The notes: generated by a model from the letters alone, not told the origin. Shown: positions 11,681-49,001, counted from the stretch's first letter. The stretch: DNA of 64,000 nucleotides from Nitrospirota bacterium (GCA_963751455.1 CAVVUN010000012.1:512001-576000); one strand, 5' to 3'. Numbers and translations: made by a program.

Positions 11681-12691
11681 CTAGAGCGGAAAGTGACAGG
11701 CAACGAGATGTCCTTCGCCGGCGTCCTTTAACTCCGGTTCAGACGCGGCATCGGTACATATGGAAGGTCTGCCCTGGGATGCATACACAGGGCAGCGTGG
11801 TGCAAAACGGCAGCCTGAACCGGGCCGCTCGAAATCAAAAACGCCCCATGTGCCTGTTTGGACGTTTTTTGACGTCATTGAGGCTTCCTTGCTGTGTTTT
11901 TCGGCCAGAGAAGACCACAGGATGTGAGTGTAAGGGTGGCTTGCCTTGCCCGCAATACGGCCGGCGAGACCCATCTCGACTATCTTGCCCAGGTACATTA
12001 CGGCAACGGTATGGCTGATCAGTTCCACGACCCTGAGATCATGTGATATGAACAGAAAGGAAAGGCCGAGCTGCTTTTGCAGGTCCCGAAGAAGGTTGAT
12101 GACCTGCGCCTGGATGGATACATCGAGGGCGCTGGTGGGTTCATCGGCCACGATGAGTCGAGCGCCTACCGAGAGAACCCGGGCCACGCCGACACGCCGC
12201 TTCTCTCCGCCGGATAACTCATGGGGGAAATTCGACAGTTTGCTCTTTTTAAGGTTGACTTGTTCCAGCAAATCGCTGATGCGCTGGTTCACGTCGGCGT
12301 CACTCATTTCATGATGGACCTGGATCGATTCCTTCAGAATGTCCCGTATGCGCATCTTCGGATTGAGAGCTGCGTCCAGGTCTTGAAAAATCATCTGCAT
12401 CTGTCCGCGGAGCAGCCGCAGGTCCTCGGGAGGCATGGCAATGATATCCTTGCCGTCGAAAAGGATTTTGCCCGAGGTGGCCGGCAGGAGCCGAAGAATC
12501 GTCTTGCCGATCGTGGTCTTTCCGCACCCGGATTCCCCTACAAGCCCCAGGGTCTCATTCTCCTTGAGAGAAAAGGTTACTCCATCCACCGCGGGAATAG
12601 ACCGTTTCTTTTCCTTGAACGCCGAGAAGAGGCCCGCGTGCTGGGCAAAGTGCTTTTTAAGGTCTATGACTTCGAGTATGGTTTTTGACAT
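11681..12691 (-). CDS. Oligopeptide/dipeptide-type ABC transporter ATPase (OppF/DppF-like)
   Basis: GESGCGKT, LSGGE, VADEPTSALD, HDL, HPYT, GCRFAPRC, VACH. Confidence 0.92.
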   Translation of the reverse strand: MSKTILEVIDLKKHFAQHAGLFSAFKEKKRSIPAVDGVTFSLKENETLGLVGESGCGKTTIGKTILRLLPATSGKILFDGKDIIAMPPEDLRLLRGQMQMIFQDLDAALNPKMRIRDILKESIQVHHEMSDADVNQRISDLLEQVNLKKSKLSNFPHELSGGEKRRVGVARVLSVGARLIVADEPTSALDVSIQAQVINLLRDLQKQLGLSFLFISHDLRVVELISHTVAVMYLGKIVEMGLAGRIAGKASHPYTHILWSSLAEKHSKEASMTSKNVQTGTWGVFDFERPGSGCRFAPRCPVYASQGRPSICTDAASEPELKDAGEGHLVACHFPL

Positions 12692-12701
12692 AATCAAATC
12701 A

Positions 12702-12812
12702 TTGGACGCAGATAAACGCTGAGAGCTGACGCTCGCAGAAAACGCCGACTGCCTCTCTAAGAACCGCTTCCCCGATTTAATCTGCGTTCATCTGCGTAAA
12801 TCCGCGTCCCAA
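12702..12812. repeat. Intergenic REP-like inverted doublet (CGCAGAT.../...ATCTGCG family)
   Basis: GGACGCAGATAAACGCTGA...ATCTGCGTTCATCTGCGTAAATCCGCGTCC; related doublets at ~16093-16202, 28357-28480, 35185-35433, 40640-40732, 50906-51072 and 53214-53302. Confidence 0.65.
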
Positions 12813-12823
12813 CGGCTTTTGTC

Positions 12824-13925
12824 TTAATCAAAATACAACCAGCAGCGCACCGTATGGCCGGGCGTGATCTCTCTCAGGTCCGGCTCCTTATGCTCGCACT
12901 TCTCGCGTATCGCATGGGTCACCCGGTTGCAGCGGCTGTAGAACCGGCACCCTGCCGGAATGTTGATCGTGTCGAGAACATCCCCCTCGATTGCGTGCAG
13001 ATAGCCTTTCTCTTTTATATTCTGCGCGGTAGGGATGGAAGACAGAAGTGCCATCGGTATAAGGGTGCTTCGATGCAAACCCTTTCCCGAGAATGTCCCT
13101 GGCCGGTCCATATTCGAAAACCGTGCCCCCGTACATCACGGCCACGCTGTCCGAGAGACGGGAAATGATGCTGATGTCATGGCTGATCAGCATCGTCGTG
13201 ATCCCGAGTTCCTGTTTGAGCTCCGCAAGAAGGTCAACAATCTTCGATTGTATCGTGGCGTCCAGGCCTGTTGTCGGCTCGTCCGCAATCAAAAGAGACG
13301 GCTCGCAGGCCAGCGCCATGGCGATCATCGCGCGCTGGCACATTCCGCCTGAAAGGCCGTAGGGATAGTTGTCAAACCTGAGCCGCGGCGAGTCTATCCG
13401 AACCCGGTCGAGCCAGAAGTATGCGCGGTCCGCGGCCTCCCGGTTACTCGTGATCGAGGTATGAAGCCGGATCGCCTCGGTTATCTGCTTGCCGACGGTA
13501 GTAAAGGGATTGAGCGAGGACTTCGGGTTCTGGAAGATCATGGCAATCTCTTTGCCGCGCACCCCGCTCATAATACGTTCCGCATTGTCGCTCCCATCCG
13601 ATAACATCCTTGCTTGCCCGCATGATCATGCCGTTCTTCTTCTCGAGCCTTACGTAGTCGCCAAGATCCGGGAGAAGGTCCTTCCGGACCCGCGTTGTTT
13701 TTAATTCGACCTTGCCGGTGATAACGCCAGGGCCGTCGCTGATAAGTCCCATGACCGACAACGCCGTGATGCTTTTGCCGCTCCCGCTCTCGCCCACGAC
13801 CCCGAGAGTCTCACCGGGCGCAATCGCGAGGCTCACCCCATCGACGGACCGGATAAAGGCCCGCTTGCTGCGGGAGTAAAAATACGTGCGAAGATCCTCA
13901 ATTTCAGGAGCGAAGCTGTCGTCAT
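12824..13925 (-). CDS. ABC transporter ATPase (OppD/DppD-like), broken by several frameshifts
   Basis: Pieces in different frames: GESGSGKS (13444..13836), [24 protein letters not shown] (12888..13607), GCRFYSRC...VRC (12824..13111); ATG 13925 overlaps the permease stop. Confidence 0.85.
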
Positions 13926-14818
13926 TTGCCCCTCTTGCCTTCGAAGATATTGTTCAGCCCGTCTCCGAGCAAATGAAACCCGAGGATCGTGAAAAGAATC
14001 GCAAGCGAAGGAACGGTCGACGGCCAGAATTTGCCTTGCATGAAATAATTCGCGCCGGACTGCACCATGTTTCCCCATGAGGGCATTGGCTCCTGAACGC
14101 CGAACCCGAGATAGCTAAGGGACGTTTCCATGAGTATCGCCTCTGCCATGCCGAGCGTGGCCTGGATGATGAGGAGCGAGCGGCAATTATACCAGAGAAT
14201 GTGTTTTAGGATAATTGTTCGGGTAGGCAGGCCGAGTGCGGTATCGGCCTCGATAAAGTTCTTTTGTTTCAGAAACTGGATCTTCCCCTTGATGAGGGAT
14301 GCCACAACCGGGACATTGGTCAGCCCAACGACGAGCATGATGTAATAGATGTCCGGCTTGAAAGACGCGATGACGAGCAGGATGAGCACAAGCCGCGGGA
14401 AGGAATCCACCAGGTTCATAAAATAGGTGATCACCCTGTCCAATCCCGCCCTGGCGGGATATCCGGCGAGCACGCCGAGTATCGTGCCGAAAAAAAGGGC
14501 TATGAAGATAGCGAGCACTCCCGGAAGAAAATATGCCTGGATTCCAACGATGAGCCGGGACAGCATGTCCCGGCCCATGAAGTCCGTACCCAGGAGATGC
14601 CCTTCGGTTCCCGGGGAAGCCATCATGAGCTCGAGGTCGATGTCCTGGGGGTCGCGCGGCAAAAGATCGAATGAGCCAAGGATGTAGGACACGACAACAA
14701 GCGTAACGATGAGCAGGCCATATGCTATATAGGCAAGGTCAACCACGTCCGCTTTTTTCCAGAACGGCAGGTCTGAAAATTCGCCTATTGCGCCGGGCAT
14801 TTGAGTGTAGGTTTTCAT
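13922..14818 (-). CDS. ABC transporter permease (OppC/DppC-like)
   Basis: [41 protein letters not shown]; start placed at MKTYTQ. Confidence 0.92.
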
Positions 14819-14969
14819 AATGAGTCTTGTCAAGCGGATACGGCAACGATGCCTGTGTCGTCGAGCGTCTATCGGCAACGTATTAAAGACGAACGACGTA
14901 ACACGTGACCGAAACGGGCTTCATTACCGATTCACCCCTTACGCCTCACACCCACTTCTTACGGGTTTC

Positions 14970-15944
14970 TTATTCCTTTGACCCCCTCGGATTCACTGCC
15001 ACATATACGATACTTTGAAGGAGACTGCCCATGCGCACGATGACAGCGGCGAGGATCGAGATGCCCATGATGACAGGGTAATCCCGGTCCTGAGCGGCCT
15101 GCCACGCCATTCTTCCCATGCCCGGCCAGTTGAAAACCTGCTCGACAATGACGGCGCCGCCCAGAATAAAGGGGATCTTGGACGCGACGATCTCGGTAAC
15201 CGGTATCACGAGGCCTTCCTTAAATGAATGCTTCCATACGGAGGCGCCCTTTGCACGGGCTGTGCGGATGTAGTCTTCGGCCATTACCCTGCCCATCTCG
15301 TCACGCAGAAAACGGATCACCTCGCTGATCGTGCCGTTCCCGATGCCCAGCACAAGGATCGGCAGCAGGGCATAAAGCCAGCCGAACCGGTTCGAGGATG
15401 TCGAGTAGCCGAGGGCTATTGGAAAAAGGCCGAGTTTATGCGTAAAGAAATAAATGACGATATAGCCGAGCCAGAAGACGGGTAAAGCGGAAATGATGTA
15501 GGAGAACATGGTAAGCGGCCAGGAAATTTTATCAGTGCCGCGAACGGCGGAATAAAGCGCGATCGGGATGGCGATCAACAGCGTGATGAACAGGGACCCG
15601 AGGGTGAGGGAGAGAGTATTCAGCCCTACTCGAACCACCTCCTTCAGCACCGGTAAGCCGGTCCGCATGGATGTGCCGAAATCGCCGCGCAGCATCCCGG
15701 TCAGCACTGAGAAATACTTGCCGTACCATGATGTGGGTACGCTAACGGCATCCCTGATGCCGGTTTGCGCCTCAAGCGTGGACACCCCGCCCTCGACCAG
15801 GGTGCTGAAAGGATCTCCTGGCGACAGATAGAGAATTATGAATACAACAAAGCTGACCCCGAGAAGCAGGAGCGCTGTCATCAGCAATTCCCTTGACAGT
15901 GCCAGGGCAATTGGACGGATAGCGGATAATTTCAGCGATGCCAT
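14970..15944 (-). CDS. ABC transporter permease (OppB/DppB-like)
   Basis: PGDP, GDFGTS, DYIRTARAKG, VEQVFNWPGMG, RDYPVIMG. Confidence 0.93.
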   Translation of the reverse strand: MASLKLSAIRPIALALSRELLMTALLLLGVSFVVFIILYLSPGDPFSTLVEGGVSTLEAQTGIRDAVSVPTSWYGKYFSVLTGMLRGDFGTSMRTGLPVLKEVVRVGLNTLSLTLGSLFITLLIAIPIALYSAVRGTDKISWPLTMFSYIISALPVFWLGYIVIYFFTHKLGLFPIALGYSTSSNRFGWLYALLPILVLGIGNGTISEVIRFLRDEMGRVMAEDYIRTARAKGASVWKHSFKEGLVIPVTEIVASKIPFILGGAVIVEQVFNWPGMGRMAWQAAQDRDYPVIMGISILAAVIVRMGSLLQSIVYVAVNPRGSKE

Positions 15945-16322
15945 GCGGAAGCTGGATATTTCATCGGTTGCCGAGCCATTGAGCGTTATCCCTTCTTTCT
16001 TAATATTTTAAAAAACCGGTGCCAATACCGTTAAAAACCTTTACTTCGCATTATCTTTAAATTTGAGTCAAGTTTTTGAGAAGCTAAAAAGCATTTACCG
16101 CGAAGGCGCGAGGAGCGCGAAGGAAACCATACGACAAAATCTTATTTCTGGTTTAAACCCGTTTCAATTCCTGCTTTCCTCGCGTCCTGCGCCTTCGCGG
16201 TTCCAAGGTATTTTTTTCATCGGTCTGAGGCCTTGCCTCGTTAAAAGTTGCACTAAAAACAAAACAGAAGACGCTGTCTCAGCGTACTTAGATCGATACA
16301 GATTTGTCATTAACTATTGGCC

Positions 16323-17933
16323 TTACTTCTGTTCTTTTTCCTCCATGAACCATTCATCCGCGTACGAGAAGAATTTATAGGGATGAATCGCCACGCGCCG
16401 TATCTTTTTGTGATAGGCCGCGTAATTCGTGAGCGTCCAGAGAAATGTGTAGGGGTTTTCATCTGCGAGAATCGAGTGGAGCTTGCGATTGATCGTGCGG
16501 CGTTTTTCATGGTCCAGGGTGAGTTTGCTCTCGTTGATCAGCCCGTCCACTTCCGGATTGGAATACCCTCCGAAGTTGTTCCTCCAGGGTCCGATCTCGC
16601 CTGAATGGAACAGCGAGGAGATGTCCGCTGAATCGTCAAAAACCCACGAGGCGAAAATGACATCGAAATCGTGCTCGAGGAAGACATCCTCCTTCCAGGA
16701 TTGCCACTCCTTGAACTCCACTTTGATGTCCACACCGATGTTTTTCAGGTAATTCTTAAAGGCGAGCACCACGCGTTTCACCGCCTCGCTTTCCTTTTCA
16801 ATGGGCACCTTGAGCGAGAGCTCCAGCTTTCTGCCCGCCTTCCGCATGAAGCCGTCAGGGCCGCGGCTGAAACCGGCTTCCTCGAGAAGTGCTATCGCCT
16901 TCTGAGGGTTAAAGGGCACCGGCTGTACATCGAGATTATATGCCCAGCTGCCAGGCGCAAAAGGCCCCGAGATGATCGTGCCCTGGCCGTTAAAGAACGA
17001 GTCGAGCATCTCCTGCCTGTTGACGGCGCAGGTAAACGCCTTCCGCACGCGCCTGTCTGCAAGAAACGGGTTCCGGGCATTATAGCCGAAGAAGGAGTAC
17101 GAAAGGGCATTATAGGGCTGGAGGACGAAACGCTTGTCGCCCTGGATCTCGGGGATATCCCGGGGATTCACAAGCACGATCATATCTATTGCGTTGAACA
17201 TCAACGCCTGGGTCATGATATTCTGATCCGCAAAGGGTTTGGCTACGAACTTATCGGGGTGCGGTCTACCCTTGAAATACGCCTCGTTTGCGGTGAGAAC
17301 AATCTCCCGTTCCGCCGTAATATTCTTCAGGATGAAAGGCCCGGTGCCGATCGGATGCTGTACGAAGCCGTCGTCCCGGGTAAGGTAAACCGGGTTGCTC
17401 GGGCCGTGCTTGGGTATCACTTTAAAGCTGAATTTCGCGAGCGCGTTCAGGATCGGCCGCTTCAGCGTAAACTTGACCGTGTAGTCATCGATCTTCTCCG
17501 TGGATTCGATAAACTCATAACGCACCTTGAGCGGCGTGATCGTTTTGGGATGCATCATGATCTTCCAGGTGAAGACCACGTCTTCTGCCGTAAACGGATG
17601 CGGTGCTTCGCCCTCGCGCTGATGCCAGGTCACGTCCTTGCGAAGGTAAAAAGTATAGGTGCGACTGTCAGGGGAACTCTCCCATCGCTCGGCGAGCTCC
17701 GGTACGATCTCCTGCTTTTCGTTGATCCCGACCAGACCGTTGAAAATAAGCTCCGAGAGCCTGAGCGAAATCATTTCATTGCTCGTGATCGGGTCCAGCG
17801 TCGCAGGACGGCCGTATTCGCCGTAGCTCACGGTGCCGCCGTCCGTTCTGCCGTCCTGCTTGCGGCCTGCCCACGTCTCGTTCGCTGCGAGCGTAACTGC
17901 TGTCAGCATCACTGCCATCAAGATCCGTTGCAT
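16323..17933 (-). CDS. ABC transporter substrate-binding protein, family 5
   Basis: Signal peptide; TLDP, PELAERWE, FTAEDVVFT, PIGTGPF, NFGGYSNPEVD. Confidence 0.93.
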   Translation of the reverse strand: MQRILMAVMLTAVTLAANETWAGRKQDGRTDGGTVSYGEYGRPATLDPITSNEMISLRLSELIFNGLVGINEKQEIVPELAERWESSPDSRTYTFYLRKDVTWHQREGEAPHPFTAEDVVFTWKIMMHPKTITPLKVRYEFIESTEKIDDYTVKFTLKRPILNALAKFSFKVIPKHGPSNPVYLTRDDGFVQHPIGTGPFILKNITAEREIVLTANEAYFKGRPHPDKFVAKPFADQNIMTQALMFNAIDMIVLVNPRDIPEIQGDKRFVLQPYNALSYSFFGYNARNPFLADRRVRKAFTCAVNRQEMLDSFFNGQGTIISGPFAPGSWAYNLDVQPVPFNPQKAIALLEEAGFSRGPDGFMRKAGRKLELSLKVPIEKESEAVKRVVLAFKNYLKNIGVDIKVEFKEWQSWKEDVFLEHDFDVIFASWVFDDSADISSLFHSGEIGPWRNNFGGYSNPEVDGLINESKLTLDHEKRRTINRKLHSILADENPYTFLWTLTNYAAYHKKIRRVAIHPYKFFSYADEWFMEEKEQK

Positions 17934-18055: not shown

Positions 18056-19543
18056 TCAATTGATCTTCACGTCTCCCGCGCTCTTATGCTCCATTGCATA
18101 AATTCCCTGAAGCGCCTCCTGGATCTGGCGCACCTCGGGGAACTGCCTGCTCATTTCGAAATATATCTCGAGCGCTTCTGAAAACTTCTTCGTCTTTCCG
18201 TATGCCTCGGCAAGGCCGACAAGCATGGCCGTATCGTTGGACTCGATCTTGTTCTTGTTGCCCTTGTCCCGCCCGGCCTCCAGATATGAAAGCGCCCGGC
18301 CATATTCTTTTCTGGACAGGTAATAATCCCCCAGCGCTATATTCAACGGAGAGAATCTTTTTCCCTGCCCCGCCTCGGCGGACGCCTCCGCTTGTTTCGC
18401 GAGCTTCCCGCAATTTATCCGGATGCTCCCGCATGACAACATTATCTCCGCGAGCACATCGACGTCTTGCGACCCCTTCGAAAGCTCGTCCCAGGCTCTA
18501 AGCGATTCTGTTTTACGGCCTTTCCTGTAGTCATTGGCCGCCTGGCGAACCCTGGCCCTGGCCCGGTACCCGGCAGGAACTGCTGATGCGCCGAGGAATA
18601 CGTTCAGCGCTTTTGTGGACAGGTCGATTTTACCGTCCAAAGCATATGCCTCTCCAAGGTAGAAATTCGCAGTTTCCCGGAGTTTGCCTTCTCCCGCGGC
18701 TTTTTCCAGTGCCGCTATCCCCGCCTTCAGGTAAAGCGTCGACAGGTGACGGAGCAGCGAAAGATCGTAAAAATTAATTGTCTTCGATTTCCCGGCCGAT
18801 TCCCTGGTAGGAAAAACCGGCAAGATCGGCTTCTGCGGCCGCGCCGAGTGCTTTGTCGATCATCCCGGCACCGGAATAAACGGAAATCAGGCTGCTGATC
18901 TGGCGCATCGACAAAGTTTTTCCCGCTTTTTTCACCGCACCAAAGCTCTCTTCCGCGAGCGCCACAGGATTCTTGTCCATGATAGCCTGACCTGGTATAT
19001 GCGGCTGCGAGTGCGGACTTGATCTCCGGTTCGGCAAGGTCCAGACCGGCCCAGACATCCTCTGCCGCTTGTCGTTTGTTTTGAAGCGCGTAGCAGAGTC
19101 CCTTATCTACAGCCGCTATCGCTTTGTGAAGAGGGGCCACATCGTCCTCCCGGACGAATATATCGAGATAGCGTATGGCCTGATCGAACCTGCCGTGCTT
19201 CCAGCAGCGTTTCGGCGAGGTACAGATTTGCAAAGCGGCTCCTGTTTTTGCCGTGCCCCGCGGCAATTTTCCTTAAATACTCCAGGTGGACGGCAAGCGA
19301 TTGACGGTATAGTCTTTCGTGAAGATCGGCGTTCCTGAGATAGCTCATGCCGAGCGTCAGCTGGGCCGCTGCCTGCCGGGCCGGGTCGAGTGATGGCAGG
19401 GATGTTCGAAGCATCGATGCGGCCTCGGCAAAATGCCGCTTTTCGTACAGCTTCATGGCGCGGGTCGCGGCGTCCTCACCAGCAGGCGCCTGCGCAGCGG
19501 ACAAGAGGATAAGGAAGGAAATCAGAAATCTCATAGCTTTCAT
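18056..19543 (-). CDS. Exported TPR-repeat protein (~490 aa if joined), broken by frameshifts
   Basis: Signal peptide in ORF 19103..19543; helical TPR-like segments continue in overlapping ORFs 18727..19266, 18774..19058 and 18056..18823. Confidence 0.65.
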
Positions 19544-19586
19544 GGCTTTTCCTTTGTTACAAGCATGTACTTCCCGGTCTTTAAGC

Positions 19587-20845
19587 TCACTCCTTCAGCC
19601 TCATTACATATATCTGGTCCCACTGGTTGACCTGTGCACGGAACGCGATGGCTGCCGTCGCGCGAACAAGTCACGTCGTGATTCATCCTGGTTTCCGTCT
19701 TAACGGGGATATTTCTCTTGCCCGCAATATCGGCAATATAAATCGGATTATACTCATGCCGGTCATTCTTCACATATGCGATCCTCGCGCTGTCAGGCAT
19801 CCATGCAGGTCCGACCTCGATGTCCGGGACCACATCGGTCGCGACAATCTTCCCGGCGAGCGTCAGCCCCTCGCTCGGGTCTGAACCGTCCGATGCAATT
19901 ACGACGATGGACCATACCTTTGGGTCTGCCTCCGCGTTATAGTTCGAGTAGAAAGCGATGTTTTTGCCGTCAGGAGACCAGACCGGTCGAAGATCATCAG
20001 GCGCCCACGTGGTCAGTCTCTTCATCGACTGCACCGGGTTCATGACGTCCCCGACGAGCAGGATGTCATGGTTTTCATTGCTGCCCGCCGTCATCACGAT
20101 TTTTTTCCCGTCAGGCGACCACCGGGGATGAAGATACGGCTTCCCGCCCGCGGGTCAAACGGGTCAGCGCGCGAGACGGGAGATCGAGGATATAGATATC
20201 GCCATGGCCTGTACGACCGGATACAAAGGCAACCCGGTCGGCCGTATGCGACCAGTCGGGCTGACCGTCCTTTTCCCGGTGATCGGTAAGCCGGACCGCC
20301 GCCTTCCCGCCCAGTTCCTGAAGATACAGGTCATAATTGCCTTCCCCGCCATTGCTCATGAATATGAACCGGTTGCTGCCGGGAGACCACGTGATGCCGG
20401 CGTTATAGCTGGTCTCGTCGTTGAAGCCCGGAAGAAAAAACTTCGTTTCGTTTCCATCGTCGGATGAACCGATGGACACAGTCTGCATTTCACTTCCGTC
20501 CCGGTAAACAATGCGGATCTCTTTTTTATCGCTGATGCTCCGTTCAAAGGCGACGAGCGCCCCTGGTGGAGACCATTGCGGGTTCGAGTCGTTTCGCCCG
20601 GGTTCTATTTTGGTAAGCGGAATGACGGACACAGGTTCTATTGCCTGTGTCGCTCTCTCTTCCTCTTTTTTTCCGGTATTCTCTCCCGAAGTTGAAAGTA
20701 AATCGAGTACCGGAACGGGAGGCCCGGCCGGCGCCGGCGCCGACGTGTTTGCCGGCAGGGACCTCAATTCCTCGGCGGGGCATTCAAGCCCGATGCATAC
20801 GATTACGAGAGCATAGGCCAGCGCCGCGTTCTTACTCTGCTTCAA
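19587..20845 (-). CDS. TolB-like PD40 beta-propeller protein, broken by frameshifts
   Basis: NPQWSP, ITWSPG, QPDWSH, RPVWSPDGKNIAFYSN, PAWMPD repeats; my translation of the last frame ends ...QVNQWDQIYVMRLKE-TGA at 19587. Confidence 0.8.
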
Positions 20846-23582: not shown

Positions 23583-24032
23583 TTACATCGTCGGCGGCTG
23601 AATATTGACCTCGCCGGGGTTCACGATTTTGTCTTCGTCAGACTTCGCCCCCTCGATGCTTTTTCGCCTACCCTCGGGTATTTTTTTGAGTTTAAAATCG
23701 ACTTTTTTGCCGCCATATTTCGTCACCTCAAGGGTTTGTGTATCGGTCATGTAGCCGATCCTGCTTGCTTCCACCTTATAGGTGCCCGGAATAATATAAT
23801 CCTTGGCCGATTCGTATTTTCCATCGACTTGGACCGTCACTGCCTGCGAGGCCCTCTCGAGGCTTGTCGTAATATTGATCATGTTGACCACAGTGCCCTG
23901 GGGGCTTTCCTTCGCGGGCGGGATCGGTTGCAGATTCGCATCCAGCAGTTGAACCGTTCCGTATATTTTCGGCGCGCATGCTTCCAGTGCAAACATCAGA
24001 ACAAACAGCAACAGAATTTTTTCTCGCTTCAT
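23583..24032 (-). CDS. Small lipoprotein with carboxypeptidase-regulatory-like domain; first gene behind riboswitch 1
   Basis: MKREKILLLFVLMFALEAC lipobox; PGTYKVEASRIGY; RBS GGGAGG; the longer ORF start at 24143 lies inside the riboswitch and is not used. Confidence 0.75.
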   Translation of the reverse strand: MKREKILLLFVLMFALEACAPKIYGTVQLLDANLQPIPPAKESPQGTVVNMINITTSLERASQAVTVQVDGKYESAKDYIIPGTYKVEASRIGYMTDTQTLEVTKYGGKKVDFKLKKIPEGRRKSIEGAKSDEDKIVNPGEVNIQPPTM

Positions 24033-40792: not shown

Positions 40793-43700
40793 TCAGGGCG
40801 GCGAGCCCCGGCGCCAGAAGACCTCGGTTTCGATCGTGAGCCGATATTTACCATTCCACTTGCCCGTAATCTCCTTCTTCAAGGCTTTGAGACGCTTCTC
40901 TACCAGGCGTTCGTTCTCGATGTCCGCCAGGTACGATAGACGCAGCACCGAGGGCGCTTTCAGCAATTCCTTCAGCAAAAGATCGATCCTCGGCTGCCAA
41001 TGCTGACGCAGCTTCGTGCTCGTCGGTTCGAACGCCCCATCCGCGATATCCATGGACACAACGTGGTGGATCGTTGCTCCGAAGTTGAAGCGCAGCATTT
41101 TGCCGCGCGTGGCGCGCTGCACCCGCGGGTTTTCGGTGGTCATTCGATAGCCGGTGGGCAGGGTGCGATCATCCAACTTCAGGATGAAGTTACTGCCGCG
41201 AATCTCGTCAGGCGCCATTGCACAGGTGACATGGAAGCGTCCGTGCTCGTCAGTGGCGGCAATCAGACCGCGTGCAGTTGCCACGCGCACCCCCGGCAAA
41301 CCCCGCTCGCCCGCGTCCTGCCGCCCGTTCAGGTCGCGATCGTCGAATACCTTGCCGACCACGTCTGTGCAATCGAAGGTCGGGTCGGGGACGACCCGGA
41401 CCGTCGCCGTTGCTGCCTCGGAGAAGGGTCCGCCTGTTTCTGTATTGATCACCTGCGCCTGGTTGACGTACTCGCCTTCCGAGACGCCGGCGCCCGCTAA
41501 CAGCAGCAGCTTGATGGTGTGCTTCTGCTTATAGCCGACGTCGAGATTGTTCCACCCCAATTGCCGGCCGTTAACGGCCGGCTCAAGCGGGGTCCCGTCG
41601 AAGCGGCTTGAGCCTTCCACATACTTGAACCCGGGCGGCAGCGTATCGACGAGGCCCAGAGGGGGCAGCGTGCTGCGCAGGGTGTTCTTGAAGGTGATCG
41701 TGTAGGGAACGAGCTGTCCGCGTGTGACATTTATCAGGGGGCTCGTCTTCGTGATGGAAATCTTTTCCTCGACATACGGATCGACCGGAATATGGTTGTT
41801 GAAGATCTGGTTGGCCGTCGAATCCAGCGTGAGATGCAGGTAGTAGGTGGCGATTGCCCCCGTCGGCGCGGTCGTCGAGACGTGCGCCTCGCATTGCGCC
41901 GTGGCCGGAATGGCGTCAGCGGAACACACCGGCGCCGAATACGGAGCGGTTTTATCACTGGTGGTCGGCAAAAGGACGAGCGACGGCTCCGCCACGTATC
42001 CCGCGGGCACTGCCGTAACCGCGATGAGATAGTCCGCGCCTTCGGGACAATTAGTTGAGTCGAATTTCAGATCGAACTTGTATTCCCCGCTTGCCGGCGT
42101 CACCTGATACTGCTGAGACGAATCGACGAAGCAGCTCGAGGGTAAATCGGTCCCCGTTGACGCCAACCGCATAGTGAGTGTCGCTCCCTCCAGCGGCTTC
42201 CGAAACTCCGACTCATAGATGACGCCATTCGCCGGGATTATGGTTTGCGTCGGGTTCTCGGTGCCCGAAACATTCGGGTCGTCGCTCTTGATCGGCGCGG
42301 GCCATGGGCCTGATAGCTCTGCCTGGTTCAATACAACGGTGCCGCTTTTGAGATCCGTCTTGAGGACAGCCTCGAACTCGATCGTAAGAGTTTCGTTCGG
42401 GCCGATATTCAGGCTATTGACGCTGAGCGTGCCTTCATTGATTTCGTAAGTAACTCCTATGGGCACGACAACGTTCCCGATCGAACCCGGCTGGAACCTC
42501 GGCGTAGCGTTCAGGCGATCGAGCTCATCGAGCAGCGAGAAATTTTCCAGCCGGATACCCGTCGGATTCTGGATGGCGATGGTGTAGCGTAACCGGTCAC
42601 CCGGGTTTCCAATCGGCTTGTCCACGGTCTTCTGTAACGTAAGGGTTGGAATCGGTACGGTCAGCGGCGGCGCGGTCGTGGTGGCCACGTAATCGTTGAA
42701 AGATGGCGTGCCGCTGCCGGTGCGCTCGTAAGCATTGTCGTTGTCAAGGCCGGTCCAGCAGGCAATCACGCTGTTGGTCAACGTCTGACCGGCCACGACC
42801 ATATCAAGCACGCGCACCTGGTAGATAAGGGGGACCGTTGTCCCTTCCGGGAGGTCGATGCCGCTGGCCCAGGTGAGGGTCTGCACTGTGCTCGCTCCAT
42901 CGCCAACCACAGTCGGTTCAACGGTTACGCCGCCGATCCGCGCGCTTCCGGATACATACACCAGCCCGAGGCTCATGGTGTCGGCAACGACGGCATCAAA
43001 GACACTTGAGAAGTCGGCGCCCGTGGCCGACGTCAGGTTCACCGTATAGGTCAGAATGTCACCCGCCTTGGGCGGCGTCGCCGGATTCACGCTCTTGGCC
43101 ACGGTAACTGAAGGCTCAACGATGGTCAGCGGACCGCTCGTGCCGTCGGTCACCGCGCCGGCCGGGATGTCCGTATAGGTATACGATGCAGCATTGGTGA
43201 AACTCGTCCCTCCATTGGCCTGCTCGTTGTTGGCCAGGCGGGCGGTAAGCGTGATCATCGCCTGCCGGCCGGCAGTAATGGCGCCGAGAGCCCAGGTCAG
43301 GGCTTGCCCGGACTGGGTGGTGGTAATGGTCAGGGGCGCGCCGTTCAGGGTGGCCGTGGCGCTCACATACGCAAGGGCGCCGTGCAGGGTGTCGCTCACC
43401 ACCACGTTGGCGAGCGAGGCGTTGACCGGCGTGCCCGGTACGGTGATCTGGTAGGTCACTGTCTCGCCGATGGTCGCCTCCCCGTTTGTCGGCGAAGTAA
43501 TTCTTTTTGCCAGCGATAGGCCGCTCACTATATTCGTCATCCAGACTTGCGCCATATTCGACGAATTGTAGATACGGCCATTAGTCGGCAGTGACGCGTA
43601 CTGGGTCAGCCCGGCCTCATTGCTCCAACTCGTCTGACCGGTAAGATCGGTATGAAAGCCGATGTTGTAGTCGATTGTCACGCACTGGCCCGGATTGACC

Positions 43701-46700
43701 GGCGTGTTGAGCACGAAAGTCATAGTTCCGCCGCGTCCCGGCGAAGGCGTATACGTGTAATCGGTGCCGGCGGCCAGCACTGTGGTGCCCACGGTAACCA
43801 CCGGCGCAGTCATGCTGGCCACATCCAACTGGCTCGCCAGCACGTCAGTAAGCTGGACGTTGTAGGCCGGGGCCAGGCCGTTGTTGCACGAATTCAGCTG
43901 GAACCTCATCACATCATTAGCTATGTAGACCTGGTACGGATTGGCATTGGAACCATCGCCACTGGCTGTCCGACCGACAACTGCGCCGGTCTTGGCGATG
44001 ATCGACATGGCCGGCTGGCGCACGTCAACTCTTTTCGTGGTCGTCAATCGGGCGGGATAGACCGTTGGGTCGCCGCCCGTATAGAAAAGTTTCGCCCTGT
44101 TGTCGAGCAGAATGGATGTGCCATTGGCCACACCCGCGGGCGGCGCATCAATGACGACCTTTGCGACATACCGGATCACCAGGGCGTCGTCAGTCGATGT
44201 GCCGTCCGGCGTGTTGATGATGTCGCCGAACTCCCAACGCAAGGTGCCGGCCGCACCCGCAGCCGGCTGTGTCCCCAGGGTATAACTGAAGTTCGCACCA
44301 CCGATGATTGAAAAGCTTTGCAGCGCCATGCCCGCTGGCAGCGCATCCTCGACCACGACGTTCCGGGTCGTGTATTCCTGCAGATTGAGCGTCAGGTCGT
44401 AGGTGACGGTGTCGCCTACTCGAACGATCGGATCGATGGTGCTCGCCGGGGTCTCGGCATAGGAATCCGTGTTGACCGATTTGGCGATGAAGGTGTTGTT
44501 AACCGTGTTGACAATGACACTGGCCGGGCCGAAGCAATAGTCGTTCGGCAAGGTCGTTGTCGGACAGCCCGCGCCGGTGCGCTCACGCCCTGGGGCTGGA
44601 TTACTCACCGGATCGATCGGATAGTCCTCATCGAGCGAGGTCCAGTCCAGATAAACGCTGTTGGTGAAGGAGCTCCCTGAGTAGGCGTCCACGACCCTTA
44701 CCTGATCGGTGAGCACCAGCGACTGGCCGGCGGGAATGTCGAGACTGCCGTCACCGTTCTCGCGTCCCCAGACCAGGGTGGTGCCGGAGGGCGTGGAGGG
44801 ATTCGCGATAAAGCCGCTGACCGCGACGCCGTTGATCGCGGCCGTGGCGGAACCGGCTACCAGCGCTACGTTCGCCGGCAAGGTGTCGACGATGTTGGCA
44901 TCAAACGCAGTGGAAGTGCCGTTATTGAGAATCGTAACCGTATATTCGAGAATGTCGCCCACCGTGGCGGGATCCGTTGCCGGCTTGCTCATGGGCGAGA
45001 CAAAGCGCACCGTCTTGGCAACGGTCAGGAAAGGTTCGATCACGGTCATGTTGGCGGTTGTGCCCGCGCCGCCGGCCAATTTGGTGCTATCGACGCCGTT
45101 TGCCCGGTTGCAGGTATACGACGCGCTGTTGGTGAAAGGCACGCTGCCCTGGTTAGCGGCGCTGTTCAGCAGCTCCACGGTGATCGAGATCTTCGCCTGT
45201 CCACTGGCAGATAAAGACTTGGCAGGGATATCGATGCCAATGGTCGTGTCTTCAAGGATGAGCGAGTTGCCGCTGCCCGTATTGCTGACCGTCCAGGCGC
45301 CGCCCGATACCACCCGCGCGCTCACAAAGCGCAGGTTGGCGGGCAGAGTATCCAGGATCTGCACGTCGTACAGGGGAACGGTGGTCGCGGTTGCGGGCAC
45401 GGTGATGGTATACTCGAACCGCTCGCCGATCGTGGCGGTTGTCTTTGCAGGGTTCGCCTTCGCCAGCGTGCCCGGAGTCTGGATCTTCACGATGGTGGGA
45501 TCTTCGTCGCCCGGATCTTCGGGCGAGGCCACGCCGTTGACGTACGGGTCATCGCTATCGGCGGTGAAGCCGCCGGCGGCGGTGAGGGTCGCCTGGTTGG
45601 AGACCGTGGTGCCGGTAACGCCTGATCTCAGTTTGATGTCGAAATCGACCACGAGCTGGCCGTTGACATTGACGTTCAGAGTAGGCGCACCATAGATCTG
45701 CAACAGACCCGTAGAGGAATTAAAATTATATGTGGCGCTGTATTGGGTTCCCGTGACAATGCTGACGATGCCAAAGGTGGCCGGATCGAACGAGTTCAGG
45801 TCCAGCTGATCGTTGATCGTGATCGTGTTGATCGTCTGATCAACATTGAAGACTCGCAGCCGGTAGCGCAAGGTGTCACCCGGCGCCGCCGTTGTGGCCG
45901 GGTTCGCAAGACTGGTCAGGTTCTGGACTGTCTTCTCGAAGTAGTAGCCGTGCAGGGCCGCCGTTACGGCCTGGCTGTCCTGATAGTCGATGATCGCTGG
46001 CGTACCGTCGGTAAGTGACCTGACGAATTCGCGACGGCCGGCATGGCTGTTGTCGGCGCTGAACCACTGGGTGACGCCGGCGACGTTGGTAAGCGTTGCG
46101 CCATCATTCGTAAAATCTATATCGAGCTGCGTCTGGTAGGTGATGATCAGGTGCTGCTCGGGCGCGATCTTGGCCGCCGTCGTAAGCATGGTCAGTGTGA
46201 GGTCGCAACCGCTATAGGTGACCGAGTAGTCGGTGTTCGGCATCAACGCCAATCCCGAGCCCGGGGTGCCGCCAGCCGCAATGATCTCGGCAGTAAGCGG
46301 GGTAGGAGGGTTGAGAGAGCCGGGGGGAAGGCCGGTGATGGGGTTGGTGACGCACATGCCGGCGGGGAGCTTGTCGAGGATGGTGGCGTTCCAGGCATCG
46401 CTGCCGCCGGTGTTCTGGACGTCGATGGTAAAGATCGCCGGGTCCCCAACGTTCAGGGCCGTCGCCGGGCTCGTCTTGTTGACCACGAGAACGGGGGCCA
46501 CGATGGTCATCGGCGCCGAGATGCCGGACTCGCCCGGGAGGGGATTAAAGAATTCATTCGCTTCAATGAGGCCGTTCTCATTGAGATCGATCCACCTTGA
46601 AAATTGCCACGTGGCAGTGTTGGTGAACGACAATCCCGGCTGGTTCGTTGGCGTGTCATCGAGGACCACCTCCACCTCGATCACGACCTGCTGATAGGCC

Positions 46701-47536
46701 GCGATATTGGGAAGCGTGAAGTGAAGATACTTATTGGTACTGTCAGGCAGTTGCGTGATCGGCACAGATGTGGTGGTGCCCTTGTAGTGGGCGTTCAAAC
46801 TCTGAAGGGTGAGAGCGGCGCCCGTGGCGGTGAGATCGTCCCAGACCTCGATGTTGCCCAACTCGTGATCTGACGGAGCGCCTGCGGGAAAGTTCATGGA
46901 CGGGATCGTGAGCGTGTAGGTGAAAGGCAGACCGATGGTTGCCGTAGTCGCGGGGGCCTGCTTAGCGATGGTCTCAGCGGGGATCATGATATCCTGGCAT
47001 GAACCACTGAAAGACCCCTCCGGGGAGTTAACTATCCAGAGCTTGTGGTCAATATTGGAACACGCCATATTGCCGTCGAACCAAACATTGTCGAATACAA
47101 TGAGATAGATTGTGGGGTCATTGGTTTGAAAGTTAATGGTTGCGGTCAGCGGATTGGACAGCGGCCAGTTCTGGAACGTGCAAGTCATGTCGATCGTGAC
47201 CTGAACAGGAGAGGCGCCGAGAACATTACCGTCAACCACTCCCTGCACTCCGTTGGCCCAGAATTGGGAGCAAAATTTATCCTCCGCCTGTGCGGAGAAG
47301 GCCGCGCCCAGCAACAGGGCGAAGAGGAGCAGCAGCGGGAAACCGAGCCTTGCGCCGCGTGCTGCCAGCGCTTTAAGGAAACCCTCCCACTTCCAGGCCT
47401 TCCGGCTCGAACACATCCCCCGCAGCAACTCGACTGAGCTCGCCGAAGTCTTACCGCGCAGCGGCAACGCCGCGGCGACCCCAAGTACCCGGGCTGCTCG
47501 AACAAGAAGGCCTGTAAGAGTCTCCTTTAACTTCAT
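40793..47536 (-). CDS. Giant adhesin-like protein with 11 DUF11/isopeptide-type Ig domains and an SdrD-B-like C-terminal region
   Basis: 2247 aa; long signal region ending AFSAQA; 11 repeats of K..G(D/E)xxxY..DxLP..NxA; C-terminal GKVFDDRDLNGRQDAGERGLPGV. Confidence 0.85.
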   Translation of the reverse strand: MKLKETLTGLLVRAARVLGVAAALPLRGKTSASSVELLRGMCSSRKAWKWEGFLKALAARGARLGFPLLLLFALLLGAAFSAQAEDKFCSQFWANGVQGVVDGNVLGASPVQVTIDMTCTFQNWPLSNPLTATINFQTNDPTIYLIVFDNVWFDGNMACSNIDHKLWIVNSPEGSFSGSCQDIMIPAETIAKQAPATTATIGLPFTYTLTIPSMNFPAGAPSDHELGNIEVWDDLTATGAALTLQSLNAHYKGTTTSVPITQLPDSTNKYLHFTLPNIAAYQQVVIEVEVVLDDTPTNQPGLSFTNTATWQFSRWIDLNENGLIEANEFFNPLPGESGISAPMTIVAPVLVVNKTSPATALNVGDPAIFTIDVQNTGGSDAWNATILDKLPAGMCVTNPITGLPPGSLNPPTPLTAEIIAAGGTPGSGLALMPNTDYSVTYSGCDLTLTMLTTAAKIAPEQHLIITYQTQLDIDFTNDGATLTNVAGVTQWFSADNSHAGRREFVRSLTDGTPAIIDYQDSQAVTAALHGYYFEKTVQNLTSLANPATTAAPGDTLRYRLRVFNVDQTINTITINDQLDLNSFDPATFGIVSIVTGTQYSATYNFNSSTGLLQIYGAPTLNVNVNGQLVVDFDIKLRSGVTGTTVSNQATLTAAGGFTADSDDPYVNGVASPEDPGDEDPTIVKIQTPGTLAKANPAKTTATIGERFEYTITVPATATTVPLYDVQILDTLPANLRFVSARVVSGGAWTVSNTGSGNSLILEDTTIGIDIPAKSLSASGQAKISITVELLNSAANQGSVPFTNSASYTCNRANGVDSTKLAGGAGTTANMTVIEPFLTVAKTVRFVSPMSKPATDPATVGDILEYTVTILNNGTSTAFDANIVDTLPANVALVAGSATAAINGVAVSGFIANPSTPSGTTLVWGRENGDGSLDIPAGQSLVLTDQVRVVDAYSGSSFTNSVYLDWTSLDEDYPIDPVSNPAPGRERTGAGCPTTTLPNDYCFGPASVIVNTVNNTFIAKSVNTDSYAETPASTIDPIVRVGDTVTYDLTLNLQEYTTRNVVVEDALPAGMALQSFSIIGGANFSYTLGTQPAAGAAGTLRWEFGDIINTPDGTSTDDALVIRYVAKVVIDAPPAGVANGTSILLDNRAKLFYTGGDPTVYPARLTTTKRVDVRQPAMSIIAKTGAVVGRTASGDGSNANPYQVYIANDVMRFQLNSCNNGLAPAYNVQLTDVLASQLDVASMTAPVVTVGTTVLAAGTDYTYTPSPGRGGTMTFVLNTPVNPGQCVTIDYNIGFHTDLTGQTSWSNEAGLTQYASLPTNGRIYNSSNMAQVWMTNIVSGLSLAKRITSPTNGEATIGETVTYQITVPGTPVNASLANVVVSDTLHGALAYVSATATLNGAPLTITTTQSGQALTWALGAITAGRQAMITLTARLANNEQANGGTSFTNAASYTYTDIPAGAVTDGTSGPLTIVEPSVTVAKSVNPATPPKAGDILTYTVNLTSATGADFSSVFDAVVADTMSLGLVYVSGSARIGGVTVEPTVVGDGASTVQTLTWASGIDLPEGTTVPLIYQVRVLDMVVAGQTLTNSVIACWTGLDNDNAYERTGSGTPSFNDYVATTTAPPLTVPIPTLTLQKTVDKPIGNPGDRLRYTIAIQNPTGIRLENFSLLDELDRLNATPRFQPGSIGNVVVPIGVTYEINEGTLSVNSLNIGPNETLTIEFEAVLKTDLKSGTVVLNQAELSGPWPAPIKSDDPNVSGTENPTQTIIPANGVIYESEFRKPLEGATLTMRLASTGTDLPSSCFVDSSQQYQVTPASGEYKFDLKFDSTNCPEGADYLIAVTAVPAGYVAEPSLVLLPTTSDKTAPYSAPVCSADAIPATAQCEAHVSTTAPTGAIATYYLHLTLDSTANQIFNNHIPVDPYVEEKISITKTSPLINVTRGQLVPYTITFKNTLRSTLPPLGLVDTLPPGFKYVEGSSRFDGTPLEPAVNGRQLGWNNLDVGYKQKHTIKLLLLAGAGVSEGEYVNQAQVINTETGGPFSEAATATVRVVPDPTFDCTDVVGKVFDDRDLNGRQDAGERGLPGVRVATARGLIAATDEHGRFHVTCAMAPDEIRGSNFILKLDDRTLPTGYRMTTENPRVQRATRGKMLRFNFGATIHHVVSMDIADGAFEPTSTKLRQHWQPRIDLLLKELLKAPSVLRLSYLADIENERLVEKRLKALKKEITGKWNGKYRLTIETEVFWRRGSPP

Positions 47537-47686: not shown

Positions 47687-48238
47687 CTATTCGGACGCCG
47701 CTATAAAATCGCCTCTGCGATTTTTTGCGCGGCAATCCTCGGTCAACGTGGCGCATACCGGCTTCTCCATACCATAGCTGATGAGCGCGATTCGGCTTGA
47801 CAAGATTCCGAGATCAGTCAAATATCTCTTTGCGCTCTGCGCCCTCTGCTGGCCGAGGGCCTGGTTATATTCTCTCGTGCCGCGGTCATCACAATTGCCC
47901 TCTATCCTGATGCTCACTGCGGGATTTGCCTTGAGCCACTGGGCATTCGCCTGCATGACGGCGCTTGCATCTTCACGGATAGAAGAGCTGTCGAAATCAT
48001 AATAGACCGACTGCAGACCGGCTAATGAAGCACCTGCCCGTTCAGCAGGTTCCTGTTTCATCTCGGGCTTCATCTCGGGTTTCGTCTCGGGTTTCGTCTC
48101 GGACTCGGCAACCGGAGCAGGTTCAATCTTTTGCGCTTCGGGTATGGAGCTCAGTTCGACCTTCTTTGGACAACCCCAGAGTGCTAAAAAACATGCTGCC
48201 ACAAGAACAACAAACACACTGATTTTTGCGGTTTTCAT
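47687..48238 (-). CDS. pal: Pal-like peptidoglycan-associated lipoprotein; first gene behind the tandem riboswitch
   Basis: Lipobox LWGC; VYYDFDSSSI, IEGNCDDRGTREYNQALGQQRA, ISYGMEKP, KNRR; PETK/PEMK linker repeats. Confidence 0.85.
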   Translation of the reverse strand: MKTAKISVFVVLVAACFLALWGCPKKVELSSIPEAQKIEPAPVAESETKPETKPEMKPEMKQEPAERAGASLAGLQSVYYDFDSSSIREDASAVMQANAQWLKANPAVSIRIEGNCDDRGTREYNQALGQQRAQSAKRYLTDLGILSSRIALISYGMEKPVCATLTEDCRAKNRRGDFIAASE

Positions 48239-48313: not shown

Positions 48314-48347
48314 AAATAAAAAAGCCGCCAAAAGATCCTTTGGCGGC
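48314..48347 (-). terminator. Intrinsic terminator of riboswitch 2
   Basis: GCCGCCAAAG-GAT-CTTTTGGCGGC followed by TTTTTTATTT. Confidence 0.85.
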
Positions 48348-48437
48348 CCGACAAGCATATAAAACAGAGATTATTCTGTTTTAAGTAGCTTCGTGGCTCT
48401 GCGCCCCGCGGTTTCCCGCAGTTTGCTCTGAGCAAAG
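48338..48437 (-). ncRNA. GEMM-I riboswitch, A20 variant (predicted 3',3'-cGAMP), copy 2 (downstream member of the tandem)
   Basis: CTTTGCTCAGAGCAAACTGCGGGAAACCGCGGGGCGCAGAGCCACGAAGCTA...ATGCTTGTCGGGCCGCCAAAG; A at 48427. Confidence 0.88.
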
Positions 48438-48553
48438 TAGTTGTGTTGCTGTCGTATTATGGATGCCATCATTATCTTATAGGTAAAGATAATGTCATCG
48501 GCTGTTTAGTTCATATCCGTTTTCCTCCTGCATGATCAATTTTTAATGGTCTT

Positions 48554-48593
48554 AAATAAAAAAGCCGCCAAAGATAAATTAACCTTTGGCGGC
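48554..48593 (-). terminator. Intrinsic terminator of riboswitch 3
   Basis: AGCCGCCAAAG-GTTAATTTAT-CTTTGGCGGCT followed by TTTTTATTT. Confidence 0.87.
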
Positions 48594-48725
48594 TCGACTA
48601 GCATAGAAACAGTATGCATTCTCTTTCCGGTGTAAAAAAACTTCGATGAATGAGAATGTGAGTACTGTTTTTTTAGCTTCGTAGCTCTGCGCCCCGCGGT
48701 TTCCCGCAGTTTGCTCTGAGCAAAG
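48584..48725 (-). ncRNA. GEMM-I riboswitch, A20 variant (predicted 3',3'-cGAMP), copy 3 (upstream member of the tandem)
   Basis: CTTTGCTCAGAGCAAACTGCGGGAAACCGCGGGGCGCAGAGCTACGAAGCTAAA...ATGCTAGTCGAGCCGCCAAAG; A at 48715; long P3 extension. Confidence 0.88.
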
Positions 48726-48748
48726 TATTATATTTTGTTCTCGAAATG

Positions 48749-48777
48749 ACTGTATCATGCCATTTTGACCTTGTCAA
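48749..48777 (-). promoter_or_regulatory. Sigma70-type promoter of the pal/adhesin/glt-like operon
   Basis: TTGACA-N17-TACAGT with extended -10 TG; same layout as 24275-24303. Confidence 0.8.
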
Positions 48778-49001
48778 GAAAATCGCGCTCTGTTGCCGAA
48801 TTACCAATTTTCCCTGTGTAACTTGAACATTTCTGTTTGCATTGCCTTAAAATAATATTTGCCATCAACAAAATCATACGGTAATATAGCGTTTTATTTC
48901 ATCGGTGATACTGTTTCTCAAAAAACTTTTTGCATTCTCGCTAGAGGCGAATCAGAAAATGCCGAAAAACATTACAGCGGAAAAGAAATGAAAGGTCAGA
49001 A

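Follow-up and report, generated by a model that had tools for sequence, protein, structure and literature searches.

A giant adhesin, a predicted 40-strand outer-membrane barrel and an Agl-Glt-type motor downstream of cyclic-dinucleotide riboswitches in a Nitrospirota bacterium

The window analysed here is a stretch of 64,000 nt from a Nitrospirota bacterium (GCA_963751455.1 CAVVUN010000012.1:512001-576000; genome G000), and all coordinates are those of the whole stretch. It carries two adjacent operons on the minus strand, on which all of their genes and leader elements given below lie. Operon 1 encodes a giant adhesin, an outer-membrane protein ending in a predicted 40-strand β-barrel, and a proton motor of the Agl-Glt kind; operon 2 encodes an ABC importer and four further envelope proteins. 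The original prediction for this DNA had described the 37 kb as one machine wired to a single second-messenger signal. All open reading frames (ORFs) that it named are present, between 11681 and 48238, and its Pal, TolQ, two TolR, GltG-like, TPR, adhesin, OmpA/barrel, PEGA and ABC assignments stand, whereas its TolB-like protein is a PD40 propeller. Homologous promoters and GEMM-I riboswitch-terminator units do head both operons as proposed, but the aptamers number three, two of them in tandem, rather than two.

Operon 1 opens with a Pal-like lipoprotein of 183 aa (47687..48238; TIGR02802 128.9 bits, cut-off 125.35), followed by the adhesin, the outer-membrane protein and the motor genes. We compared the latter across 76 motor-gene loci, the best of 579 matches, among which kin are not independent, a limit that applies to every linkage and co-occurrence count below. 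The first core gene in every clade seen encodes a conserved secreted protein of 174 aa (34635..35159; 56 of 76 loci). It had been overlooked in the original prediction, finds no match in Pfam or NCBIfam, occurs in distant core clades too, and does not appear in the seven-gene core list of PMC3169522. Next come a GltC-like tetratricopeptide-repeat (TPR) protein of 629 aa (32742..34631), equivalent in size and position to Gura_3077 (629 aa, a homologue of MXAN_2541), a GltD-like TPR lipoprotein with an ORF of 1130 aa (29353..32745) in the position of Gura_3076 (1108 aa), and a GltE-like TPR lipoprotein (28512..29312) in the position of Gura_3075, the NF033758 match of which stays below the cut-off (E 6e-6). 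The core's "additional gene" (28058..28426, likely start 28333) encodes a small secreted protein with the motif GMSIxGNxEAPK..IVPWK and is found at 74 of 76 loci; by analogy with PMC11761067, the protein could possibly be a GltF-like bridge. The putative proton channel consists of an AglR-like MotA/TolQ/ExbB subunit (27157..27855; PF01618; 60-89% identity over the 76 loci) and two AglQ/AglS-like ExbD/TolR subunits (26179..27176; PF02472), both of which retain the transmembrane Asp in an alignment of the proteins from this genome. A GltG-like TonB/TolA-type transducer (24801..26210) ends the operon. Its TonB-like C-terminal domain of the AgmX/PglI type matches NF033768 with 57.3 bits (cut-off 40), and its match to NF033760 (E 6e-8) remains below the cut-off.

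Gene order and sizes of this core match Gura_3077-3070 of Geobacter uraniireducens by the listed order and sizes in the supplement of PMC3169522, where the example reads 629, 1108 and 240 aa, an extra gene, 211 and 166 aa, another ExbD-like protein and 484 aa. Thus, judged by sequence, the operon 1 motor is the published Agl-Glt core complex and a member of a known family, sharing with it GltC, GltD, GltE, the small gene, AglR, two ExbD-like subunits and GltG in the same order and at similar sizes. This bears out the resemblance to the ancestral core that had been proposed earlier. The TPR/TolQR set also differs from ordinary Tol-Pal or TonB systems, as the proposal implied: the genome has a true TolB at G000:C15:622075, close to a different tolQ, and carries three further Pal genes elsewhere. 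The Pal-like gene of operon 1 itself follows gltG in several relatives, and a Pal/OmpA-type match occurs at 22 of the 76 motor loci. According to PMC3169522, a seven-gene core with one extra gene exists in Geobacter and Gammaproteobacteria, its function being unknown and the core alone being unlikely to drive motility; PMC3858216 terms the core "standalone", and bioRxiv 10.1101/2020.07.22.216333 states that its function is not known and considers protein secretion possible.

The adhesin (40793..47536, 2247 aa) has a signal-like N-terminus, a variable stalk of DUF11 domains, three pilin-like Ig domains and a C-terminal α/β domain. Matches over the cut-off comprise DUF11 (PF01345) in seven stretches, TIGR01451 and TIGR04226 (202.6 bits), and at least seven of the DUF11 repeats carry the N-terminal Lys motif of the isopeptide type. 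DUF11 is described as the isopeptide-bond stalk domain of fibrillar adhesins in PMC12617251, and with its tandem DUF11 domains and Lys motif the window adhesin falls among these DUF11/CLIPPER adhesins. A model of the last 500 residues (mean predicted local distance difference test score, pLDDT, 84) contains the three Ig domains, which match pilin structures, and the terminal α/β domain, which shows the OmpA-like β-α-β-α-β order in the model and a weak profile similarity to OmpA-C (E 0.015-0.026). Residues 2046-2155 (41072..41401) form a conserved SdrD_B-like domain. Its mean column identity reaches 79% over 60 homologues, far above the conservation of the stalk, and it is matched in distant adhesin-barrel pairs as well.

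The outer-membrane protein (35440..40548, 1702 aa) consists of three OmpA-like periplasmic domains, a middle region and the barrel. The OmpA-like domains align to Pal by profile with E 4e-13, 6e-9 and 5e-9. An Asp and Arg pair is usually tied to peptidoglycan binding in such domains, and only the first of the three keeps both residues. The barrel region (residues 811-1702; 35440..38118) was modelled with AlphaFold2 from 69 sequences (pLDDT 83.9, predicted template modelling score 0.79) and includes an inserted β domain (983-1078) and a conserved lumenal loop. The predicted count of 40 strands is indirect, as it was taken from the long amphipathic strands in the DSSP string of residues 811-1702 without use of coordinates. 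Small closed porins align over model residues ~45-936, as would follow from a pairing of the first strand with the last. A search with residues 767-1702 gathers 3314 protein clusters (E ≤ 0.001), and in the ESM Atlas the matches are confined to clusters with the automatic name "outer membrane protein". No model in Pfam or NCBIfam matches the barrel, Autotransporter, ShlB and Omp85 of Pfam included. A profile search of the PDB returned nothing below E 0.05, SprA included, and structure searches returned generic large barrels only: the best Foldseek template modelling (TM) score was 0.25, and the best VIA match had Z 12.8 with a root-mean-square deviation (rmsd) of 7 over 327 aligned residues, SprA being absent among the 50 VIA matches listed. 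Such generic matches are no proof of a new fold. In bioRxiv 10.64898/2026.03.07.710327, SprA with 36 strands is the largest barrel known, and automated counts on predicted models range from 5 to 40 before unusual counts are filtered out.

Co-folding places the conserved adhesin domain inside this barrel. Three runs with residues 2046-2155 and the barrel scored 0.74, 0.74 and 0.71, compared with 0.00 for the best of three controls; a caveat for these scores is that adhesin and barrel are halves of a gene that is also found naturally fused. Of 157 solved complexes, 116 reach the mark applied to the complex score; of 215 mismatched pairs, 2 do. The runs share at least 80% of their contacts, with a pLDDT of at least 77 for the partners. 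In the predicted complex, 42 of the 45 strand contacts of the docked domain lie on the polar, lumenal face, on strands 32-40 and 1-3, and conservation is higher at the barrel residues in contact than in the rest of the lumen (0.76 versus 0.51, p 2e-8). No similar complex was found in the PDB by profile or Foldseek search, and recall of a solved complex is therefore an unlikely cause of the high score. The model thus supports, rather than demonstrates, binding of the adhesin to the barrel, and the docking of the adhesin C-terminus that had been suggested for modelling is indeed predicted.

Adhesin, barrel and core also travel together across genomes. An adhesin or barrel gene lies within 10 kb of the motor gene at 55 of the 76 loci, upstream of the core in 31, as here, and downstream in 24; most of the other 21 loci end at a contig border. 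For 46 loci, chosen for their length, we searched the whole genomes and found the C-terminal part of the barrel in 45, while in the 46th the start of the barrel gene is visible at a contig end. Among 63 genomes of the family, GltC is present in 27 and a close barrel (at least 55% identity) in 22; all 22 have GltC, and none of the 36 core-less genomes has such a barrel. A sample of 301 gammaproteobacterial genomes contains four GltC homologues at 52% identity or more, each with a barrel within ~24 kb. The linkage of core, adhesin and barrel survives changes in gene order and spans at least seven phyla. A single ORF encodes both adhesin and barrel at 7 of 60 loci, and distances among the GltC proteins are correlated with those among the barrels (Mantel test on 41 rows, rho 0.82, 0 of 2000 permutations). 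Moreover, most core-linked barrel homologues have three OmpA-like domains, compared with 0-2 in most stand-alone ones. A GEMM-I aptamer occurs within 1.7 kb upstream of the adhesin at 25 of 48 core-linked loci, at 0 of 8 distant pairs and in 0 of 56 internal control stretches, counted with a profile that was built partly from these same loci. The co-occurrence of adhesin and barrel with the core and the recurrence of an upstream riboswitch in other phyla, both anticipated by the original prediction, are thus observed.

Expression of the operon is probably set by its leader. A promoter-like region (48749..48871) contains a 26-nt box (48871-48846), a -35 element TTGACA (48777-48772) and an extended -10 element (48754-48749), read from the sequence and functional only by presumption; the leader of operon 2 has a homologous region (24275..24401). 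The putative promoter common to both is TTGACA-N17-TA(C/A)AGT with an extended -10 TG, and in the alignment the homology of the leaders extends well upstream of the aptamers. The box, present in both (48846-48871 and 24376-24401) about 70 nt upstream of -35, is a possible transcription-factor site. Rfam identifies three c-di-GMP-I (GEMM-I, RF01051) aptamers in the window, at 48585-48725 and 48339-48437 in tandem before operon 1 and at 24124-24249 before operon 2, with 51.6-55.5 bits against a gathering threshold of 35; the whole genome has six. Each is followed by a terminator hairpin with a U-run, the 5′ strand of which is the 3′ end of the aptamer. The resulting units span 48555..48725 (51.6 bits; fold z -5.35), 48315..48437 (55.5 bits; z -4.94) and 24090..24249 (55.5 bits), and over the three the terminator folds have z of -4.1 to -5.4, with 0 of 200 shuffles equally good. 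This overlap of aptamer and terminator has the layout of a transcriptional ON switch.

All three aptamers have an A, unpaired and before the first GC pair, at the position equivalent to G20 of Vc2. According to PMC6140456, A20 marks aptamers of the cyclic GMP-AMP (cGAMP) type, which can be bispecific and also bind cyclic di-GMP (c-di-GMP). Homologous loci in other phyla carry G20, that is, aptamers of the c-di-GMP type: at the 25 loci mentioned above, the specificity position is G in 22 and A in 3 (G000, G229 and G240). A motif scan of the genome, which can miss frameshifted genes, found 39 GGDEF-like motifs, and a canonical Ser/GGDEF cyclase was not among these 39 matches. The single motif with the Hypr serine has GGEEF and belongs to a GAF-GGDEF protein (L209:168-1325; G000:C15:613967-615124) with a short insertion before the motif; it has homologues at L210-L215 and is conserved in five of five family genomes. 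Ser combined with GGEEF is reported as inactive and absent from natural Ser/Thr enzymes in PMC6456294, and the protein is a candidate for either a non-canonical cGAMP synthase or a receptor. A SMODS-family nucleotidyltransferase over the Pfam cut-off (G000:C6:271632-272027) is another possible source of cyclic dinucleotides. On balance we lean slightly toward cGAMP as the physiological ligand. The change from G20 to A20 in this Nitrospirota family, together with the conserved Ser/GGEEF cyclase, may point to a cGAMP network outside the organisms studied so far.

Taken together, we propose that operon 1 builds a machine for surface attachment: the adhesin would sit in the lumen of the predicted 40-strand barrel and is likely serviced by the Agl-Glt proton motor, operon 2 being a separate uptake operon; we assign this reading a probability of roughly 0.55. 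A cyclic dinucleotide, probably cGAMP or both cGAMP and c-di-GMP, would bind the tandem aptamers, block the terminators and switch the operon on. Adhesin and barrel protein would cross the inner membrane by Sec, as their signal-like N-termini suggest, and residues 2046-2155 of the adhesin would dock on the lumenal face of strands 32-40 and 1-3. The stalk would point outward, an exit direction that the model itself does not give, while the last adhesin domain and the OmpA-like domains would be retained on the periplasmic side, where they would anchor the complex to peptidoglycan. Finally, and as the weakest step, the AglRQS-like motor may pull at the periplasmic face of the barrel by way of GltG and a TPR scaffold of GltD/E/C, and so load, thread or release the adhesin. 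This last step follows the Myxococcus model, in which GltC is a scaffold joining the motor to outer-membrane barrels (PMC11761067). The holding of the adhesin in the barrel and the tie of the barrel to the wall have direct computational support, and the motor's share in the process is argued from linkage and analogy. Since adhesin-barrel pairs exist without a motor, it is more probable that the motor regulates or assists display than that export strictly depends on it, and the three wall anchors on the barrel make static attachment more likely than gliding.

Several observations weigh against this proposal, besides the partial dependence of the GEMM-I profile on the loci counted, and much of their force goes to an alternative that we consider unlikely without dismissing it: adhesin and barrel could be a self-sufficient two-partner display system, the Glt core having a separate envelope task such as moving outer-membrane cargo or lipoproteins, and the two being clustered by a shared surface-growth regulon. 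In the 301 gammaproteobacterial genomes, the barrel occurs in 25 and a GltC-like protein in 56, both in 14, the barrel only in 11 and GltC only in 42, and adhesin-barrel pairs without a GltC match are present in G086 (one contig, 98% complete), G024 and G092. Conversely, 5 of the 27 family cores lack a barrel match (L095, L100, L107, L220 and L221); no adhesin was detected with them, yet all five keep an A20 riboswitch directly before the 174-aa gene, which argues that the core persists under regulation even where the barrel is missing. Distant cores often adjoin small OMP_b-brl, DUF3570, HZS_alpha and ApbE genes, outer-membrane functions unrelated to the adhesin pair. Riboswitches are absent before the adhesin in 10 of 13 family loci scanned, and Rfam found none upstream of the core in eight family loci. 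Further, the barrel of the window groups with Geobacteraceae copies (FastTree 0.98, query-anchored rows) and its GltC-like protein with Nitrospirota records (quick tree, support 98), a discordance that suggests exchangeable modules; from the GltC grouping we take the family to belong to Nitrospirota. Mere clustering, on the other hand, sits poorly with a linkage that outlives gene-order change over at least seven phyla, with the correlated GltC and barrel distances (rho 0.82) and with the three OmpA-like domains that mostly distinguish core-linked barrels from stand-alone ones. In this clade, then, the core does not stand by itself, and its link to adhesin and barrel is not obligatory.

A motor that moves the adhesin along the surface would instead produce gliding, as Agl-Glt does with CglB or the type IX secretion system with SprB. 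The homology to the Agl-Glt core, the retained proton-channel Asp residues and the combination of motor, scaffold, barrel and long adhesin resemble such systems, but we regard gliding as improbable. Among the group A genes of gliding myxobacteria (gltA, B, F, H, I, J, K), the search covered GltJ (NF033761) and, with TIGR04565, which we take to be its model, the GltA/B-type barrel; neither has a match over the cut-off in G000. The barrel bears three domains of the peptidoglycan-binding type, and in other phyla the riboswitches are of the G20, c-di-GMP type (22 of 25 loci), a signal that usually favours sessile growth. PMC3169522 also holds the core alone unlikely to drive motility. Least probable of all is that both operons form one machine with the PEGA/PD40/TPR/ABC module as a working part of the motor. 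Here the two share homologous promoters and riboswitches, and the other family genomes with an A20-headed core have operon 2 in seven of seven cases, a weak point given its base rate of 45/63. Over the 63 family genomes, however, 19 have both, 8 the core only, 26 operon 2 only and 10 neither (odds ratio 0.91); of the 46 core-bearing genomes reached via the motor loci, which span many phyla, one has the operon 2 marker, and operon 2 lies within 10 kb of a motor gene at none of the 76 motor loci. The same riboswitch subtype moreover heads other genes, mostly Big_2/fn3 lipoproteins. As an obligatory part of the machine, operon 2 is thus largely refuted, and the earlier view of the 37 kb as one machine with operon 2 as an accessory part does not hold: judged by its distribution, operon 2 is a separately inherited, co-regulated neighbour that shares the riboswitch.

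The proposed adhesin-barrel-motor arrangement has partial counterparts in known systems. With Myxococcus xanthus Agl-Glt it shares the series of layers formed by motor, TonB-like GltG, TPR scaffold, outer-membrane barrel and adhesin. M. xanthus, however, has three small barrels (GltABH), GltK and the VWA lipoprotein CglB, along with GltJ and GltA/B-type genes, in contrast to one predicted 40-strand barrel with wall anchors and a DUF11 fibre here, where the GltJ and GltA/B-type genes have no match over the cut-off. Type IX SprA (36 strands) with SprB is similar in its very large single-chain barrel, a C-terminal Ig-like domain in the lumen and a proton motor nearby. SprA receives the C-terminal domain of its substrate in its lumen. 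It has no sequence match to the window barrel, though, and a Foldseek TM of 0.21 with rmsd 35 (8gl8); its motor is PorLM rather than TolQR-like, and the cargo here is encoded by a dedicated neighbouring gene or joined to the barrel in a single ORF. Type V secretion shares the order of passenger then barrel and the split and fused forms. Its barrels have 12 strands in autotransporters or 16 in Omp85/TpsB proteins, and the window barrel is far larger (~40), with OmpA-like domains between passenger and barrel and a C-terminal docking domain; FhaC, TamA and EstA give generic matches only (Z 9-10, rmsd 10-18). The pair thus works like type IX or two-partner display and fails membership of both. The "standalone" core of PMC3858216 differs by the ninth conserved gene, the dedicated adhesin, the giant barrel and the GEMM-I control found here. 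The Geobacter GEMM-Ib regulon of PMC6456294 likewise has A20 aptamers, tandem copies among them, with ON switches of the terminator type ahead of genes for surface proteins, but belongs to another phylum, and here the Ser/GGDEF cyclase was not found, the only Ser-type enzyme having GGEEF.

Motor-linked holding of an adhesin in a barrel is likely an undescribed way of displaying adhesins: our literature searches found no description of the adhesin-barrel-core link, in mostly open-access texts, with some PMC3169522 supplements and the 2015 GEMM-Ib gene lists outside reach. The function of the Agl-Glt core has been open since its definition, and a candidate cargo, an outer-membrane partner, a docking site at residue level and a regulatory signal can now be named for it. 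If true, a barrel of 40 strands would be larger than any solved so far, SprA with its 36 strands being the current maximum, and would offer a new display route for very large, covalently stabilised proteins. A broader proposal, which we put forward tentatively and at somewhat less than even odds, is that the adhesin-barrel pair is an unrecognised secretion and anchoring system, built on the largest predicted single-chain barrel, with lumenal capture of a folded cargo Ig domain and powered by Agl-Glt in one widespread clade; it would be an independently evolved counterpart of the type IX secretion system and reveal the ancestral task of the gliding motor. The cluster is carried by cultured strains of Geomonas, Citrifermentans, Microbulbifer and Lentisalinibacter.

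Two groups of related loci depart from the arrangement in the window. A gammaproteobacterial core clade with a short GltG (~315 aa; L191, L194, L196 and L198) is accompanied by two small β-barrel genes, one with SH3, by DUF3570 and HZS_alpha genes and in some cases by ApbE; from sequence, these neighbours appear to serve the same motor as a second module in the outer membrane. Adhesin-barrel pairs or fusions without a nearby core (L199-L208, L222 and L186-L188) mostly have 0-2 OmpA-like domains, and homologous ORFs reach 5036 and 11777 aa.

Operon 2 starts with a lipoprotein of 149 aa with a carboxypeptidase-regulatory-like domain (23583..24032), followed by a PEGA/carboxypeptidase-regulatory-like/TPR lipoprotein (20937..23501; ~860 aa in relatives, two indels here), a PD40 β-propeller protein (19540..20845; two indels), a TPR protein (18056..19543; ~495 aa in relatives, three indels) and a family-5 (Opp/Dpp-type) ABC importer (11681..17933) comprising a binding protein, two permeases and two ATPases, the first of which has three indels. 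The propeller was rejected as TolB, with 68 bits against a TolB cut-off of 343, and a TolB-Pal pairing between the operons was likewise discarded, the true TolB and the other Pal genes lying elsewhere. The nine-gene order is kept in 20 related loci, genes being lost to contig ends in three, and an A20 riboswitch of the same subtype precedes the operon in 17 of the 20. The marker of the operon is found in 45 of 63 family genomes, in 6 of 6 genomes of one sister family and strongly in one further genome. The importer has the binding protein, two permeases and two ATPases of the Opp/Dpp/App family, from which operon 2 differs by its four fixed upstream envelope proteins and its highly conserved binding protein (68-89% identical among relatives; closest solved relatives 8efz and AppA 1xoc). 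Gene composition and this very high conservation suggest import of a specific peptide-like ligand; capture and import of one such ligand during surface growth is its most likely role, though we hold this with low confidence. In most of 20 further sites (L129-L148), the same A20 aptamer subtype heads Big_2/fn3 surface lipoproteins, and in a few a cytochrome-like gene (L133) or other secreted proteins.

Four of the nine operon 2 genes are broken by ten single-base indels (eight insertions, two deletions), which had been overlooked in the original prediction; the genes are single ORFs in relatives. These indels are likely assembly errors. A reading of the operon as a pseudogene is less likely: the ten lesions are without exception indels of a single base, and no nonsense change was observed. 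At invariant sites, private changes lie in or just above the range of the relatives, exceeding all of them in one TPR fragment only (5 versus at most 4). A rough codon-model proxy, run without a control genome and with an uncalibrated false-positive rate, put candidate frameshifts at ~5-12 per 100 kb for all but one of the 15 contigs. Operon 1, by comparison, has no break in 24 kb, and a recent local decay of operon 2 is thus conceivable.

Elsewhere in the window, positions 1285-8098 hold CRISPR-Cas genes of the GSU0053/GSU0054/Cas3 kind, which we take to be type I-G, and positions 8623-10302 a DUF1016/YhcG gene that ends early, possibly by a frameshift, and a TumE-family toxin-antitoxin pair. 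At 54105-57170 lies a secreted protein of 1021 aa that carries Ig-like repeats of the Big_13 type and has a barrel-like C-terminus ending near a β-signal. On another contig, an open frame of 7054 aa (G000:C4:55325-63952) shows TolB-like propeller matches.

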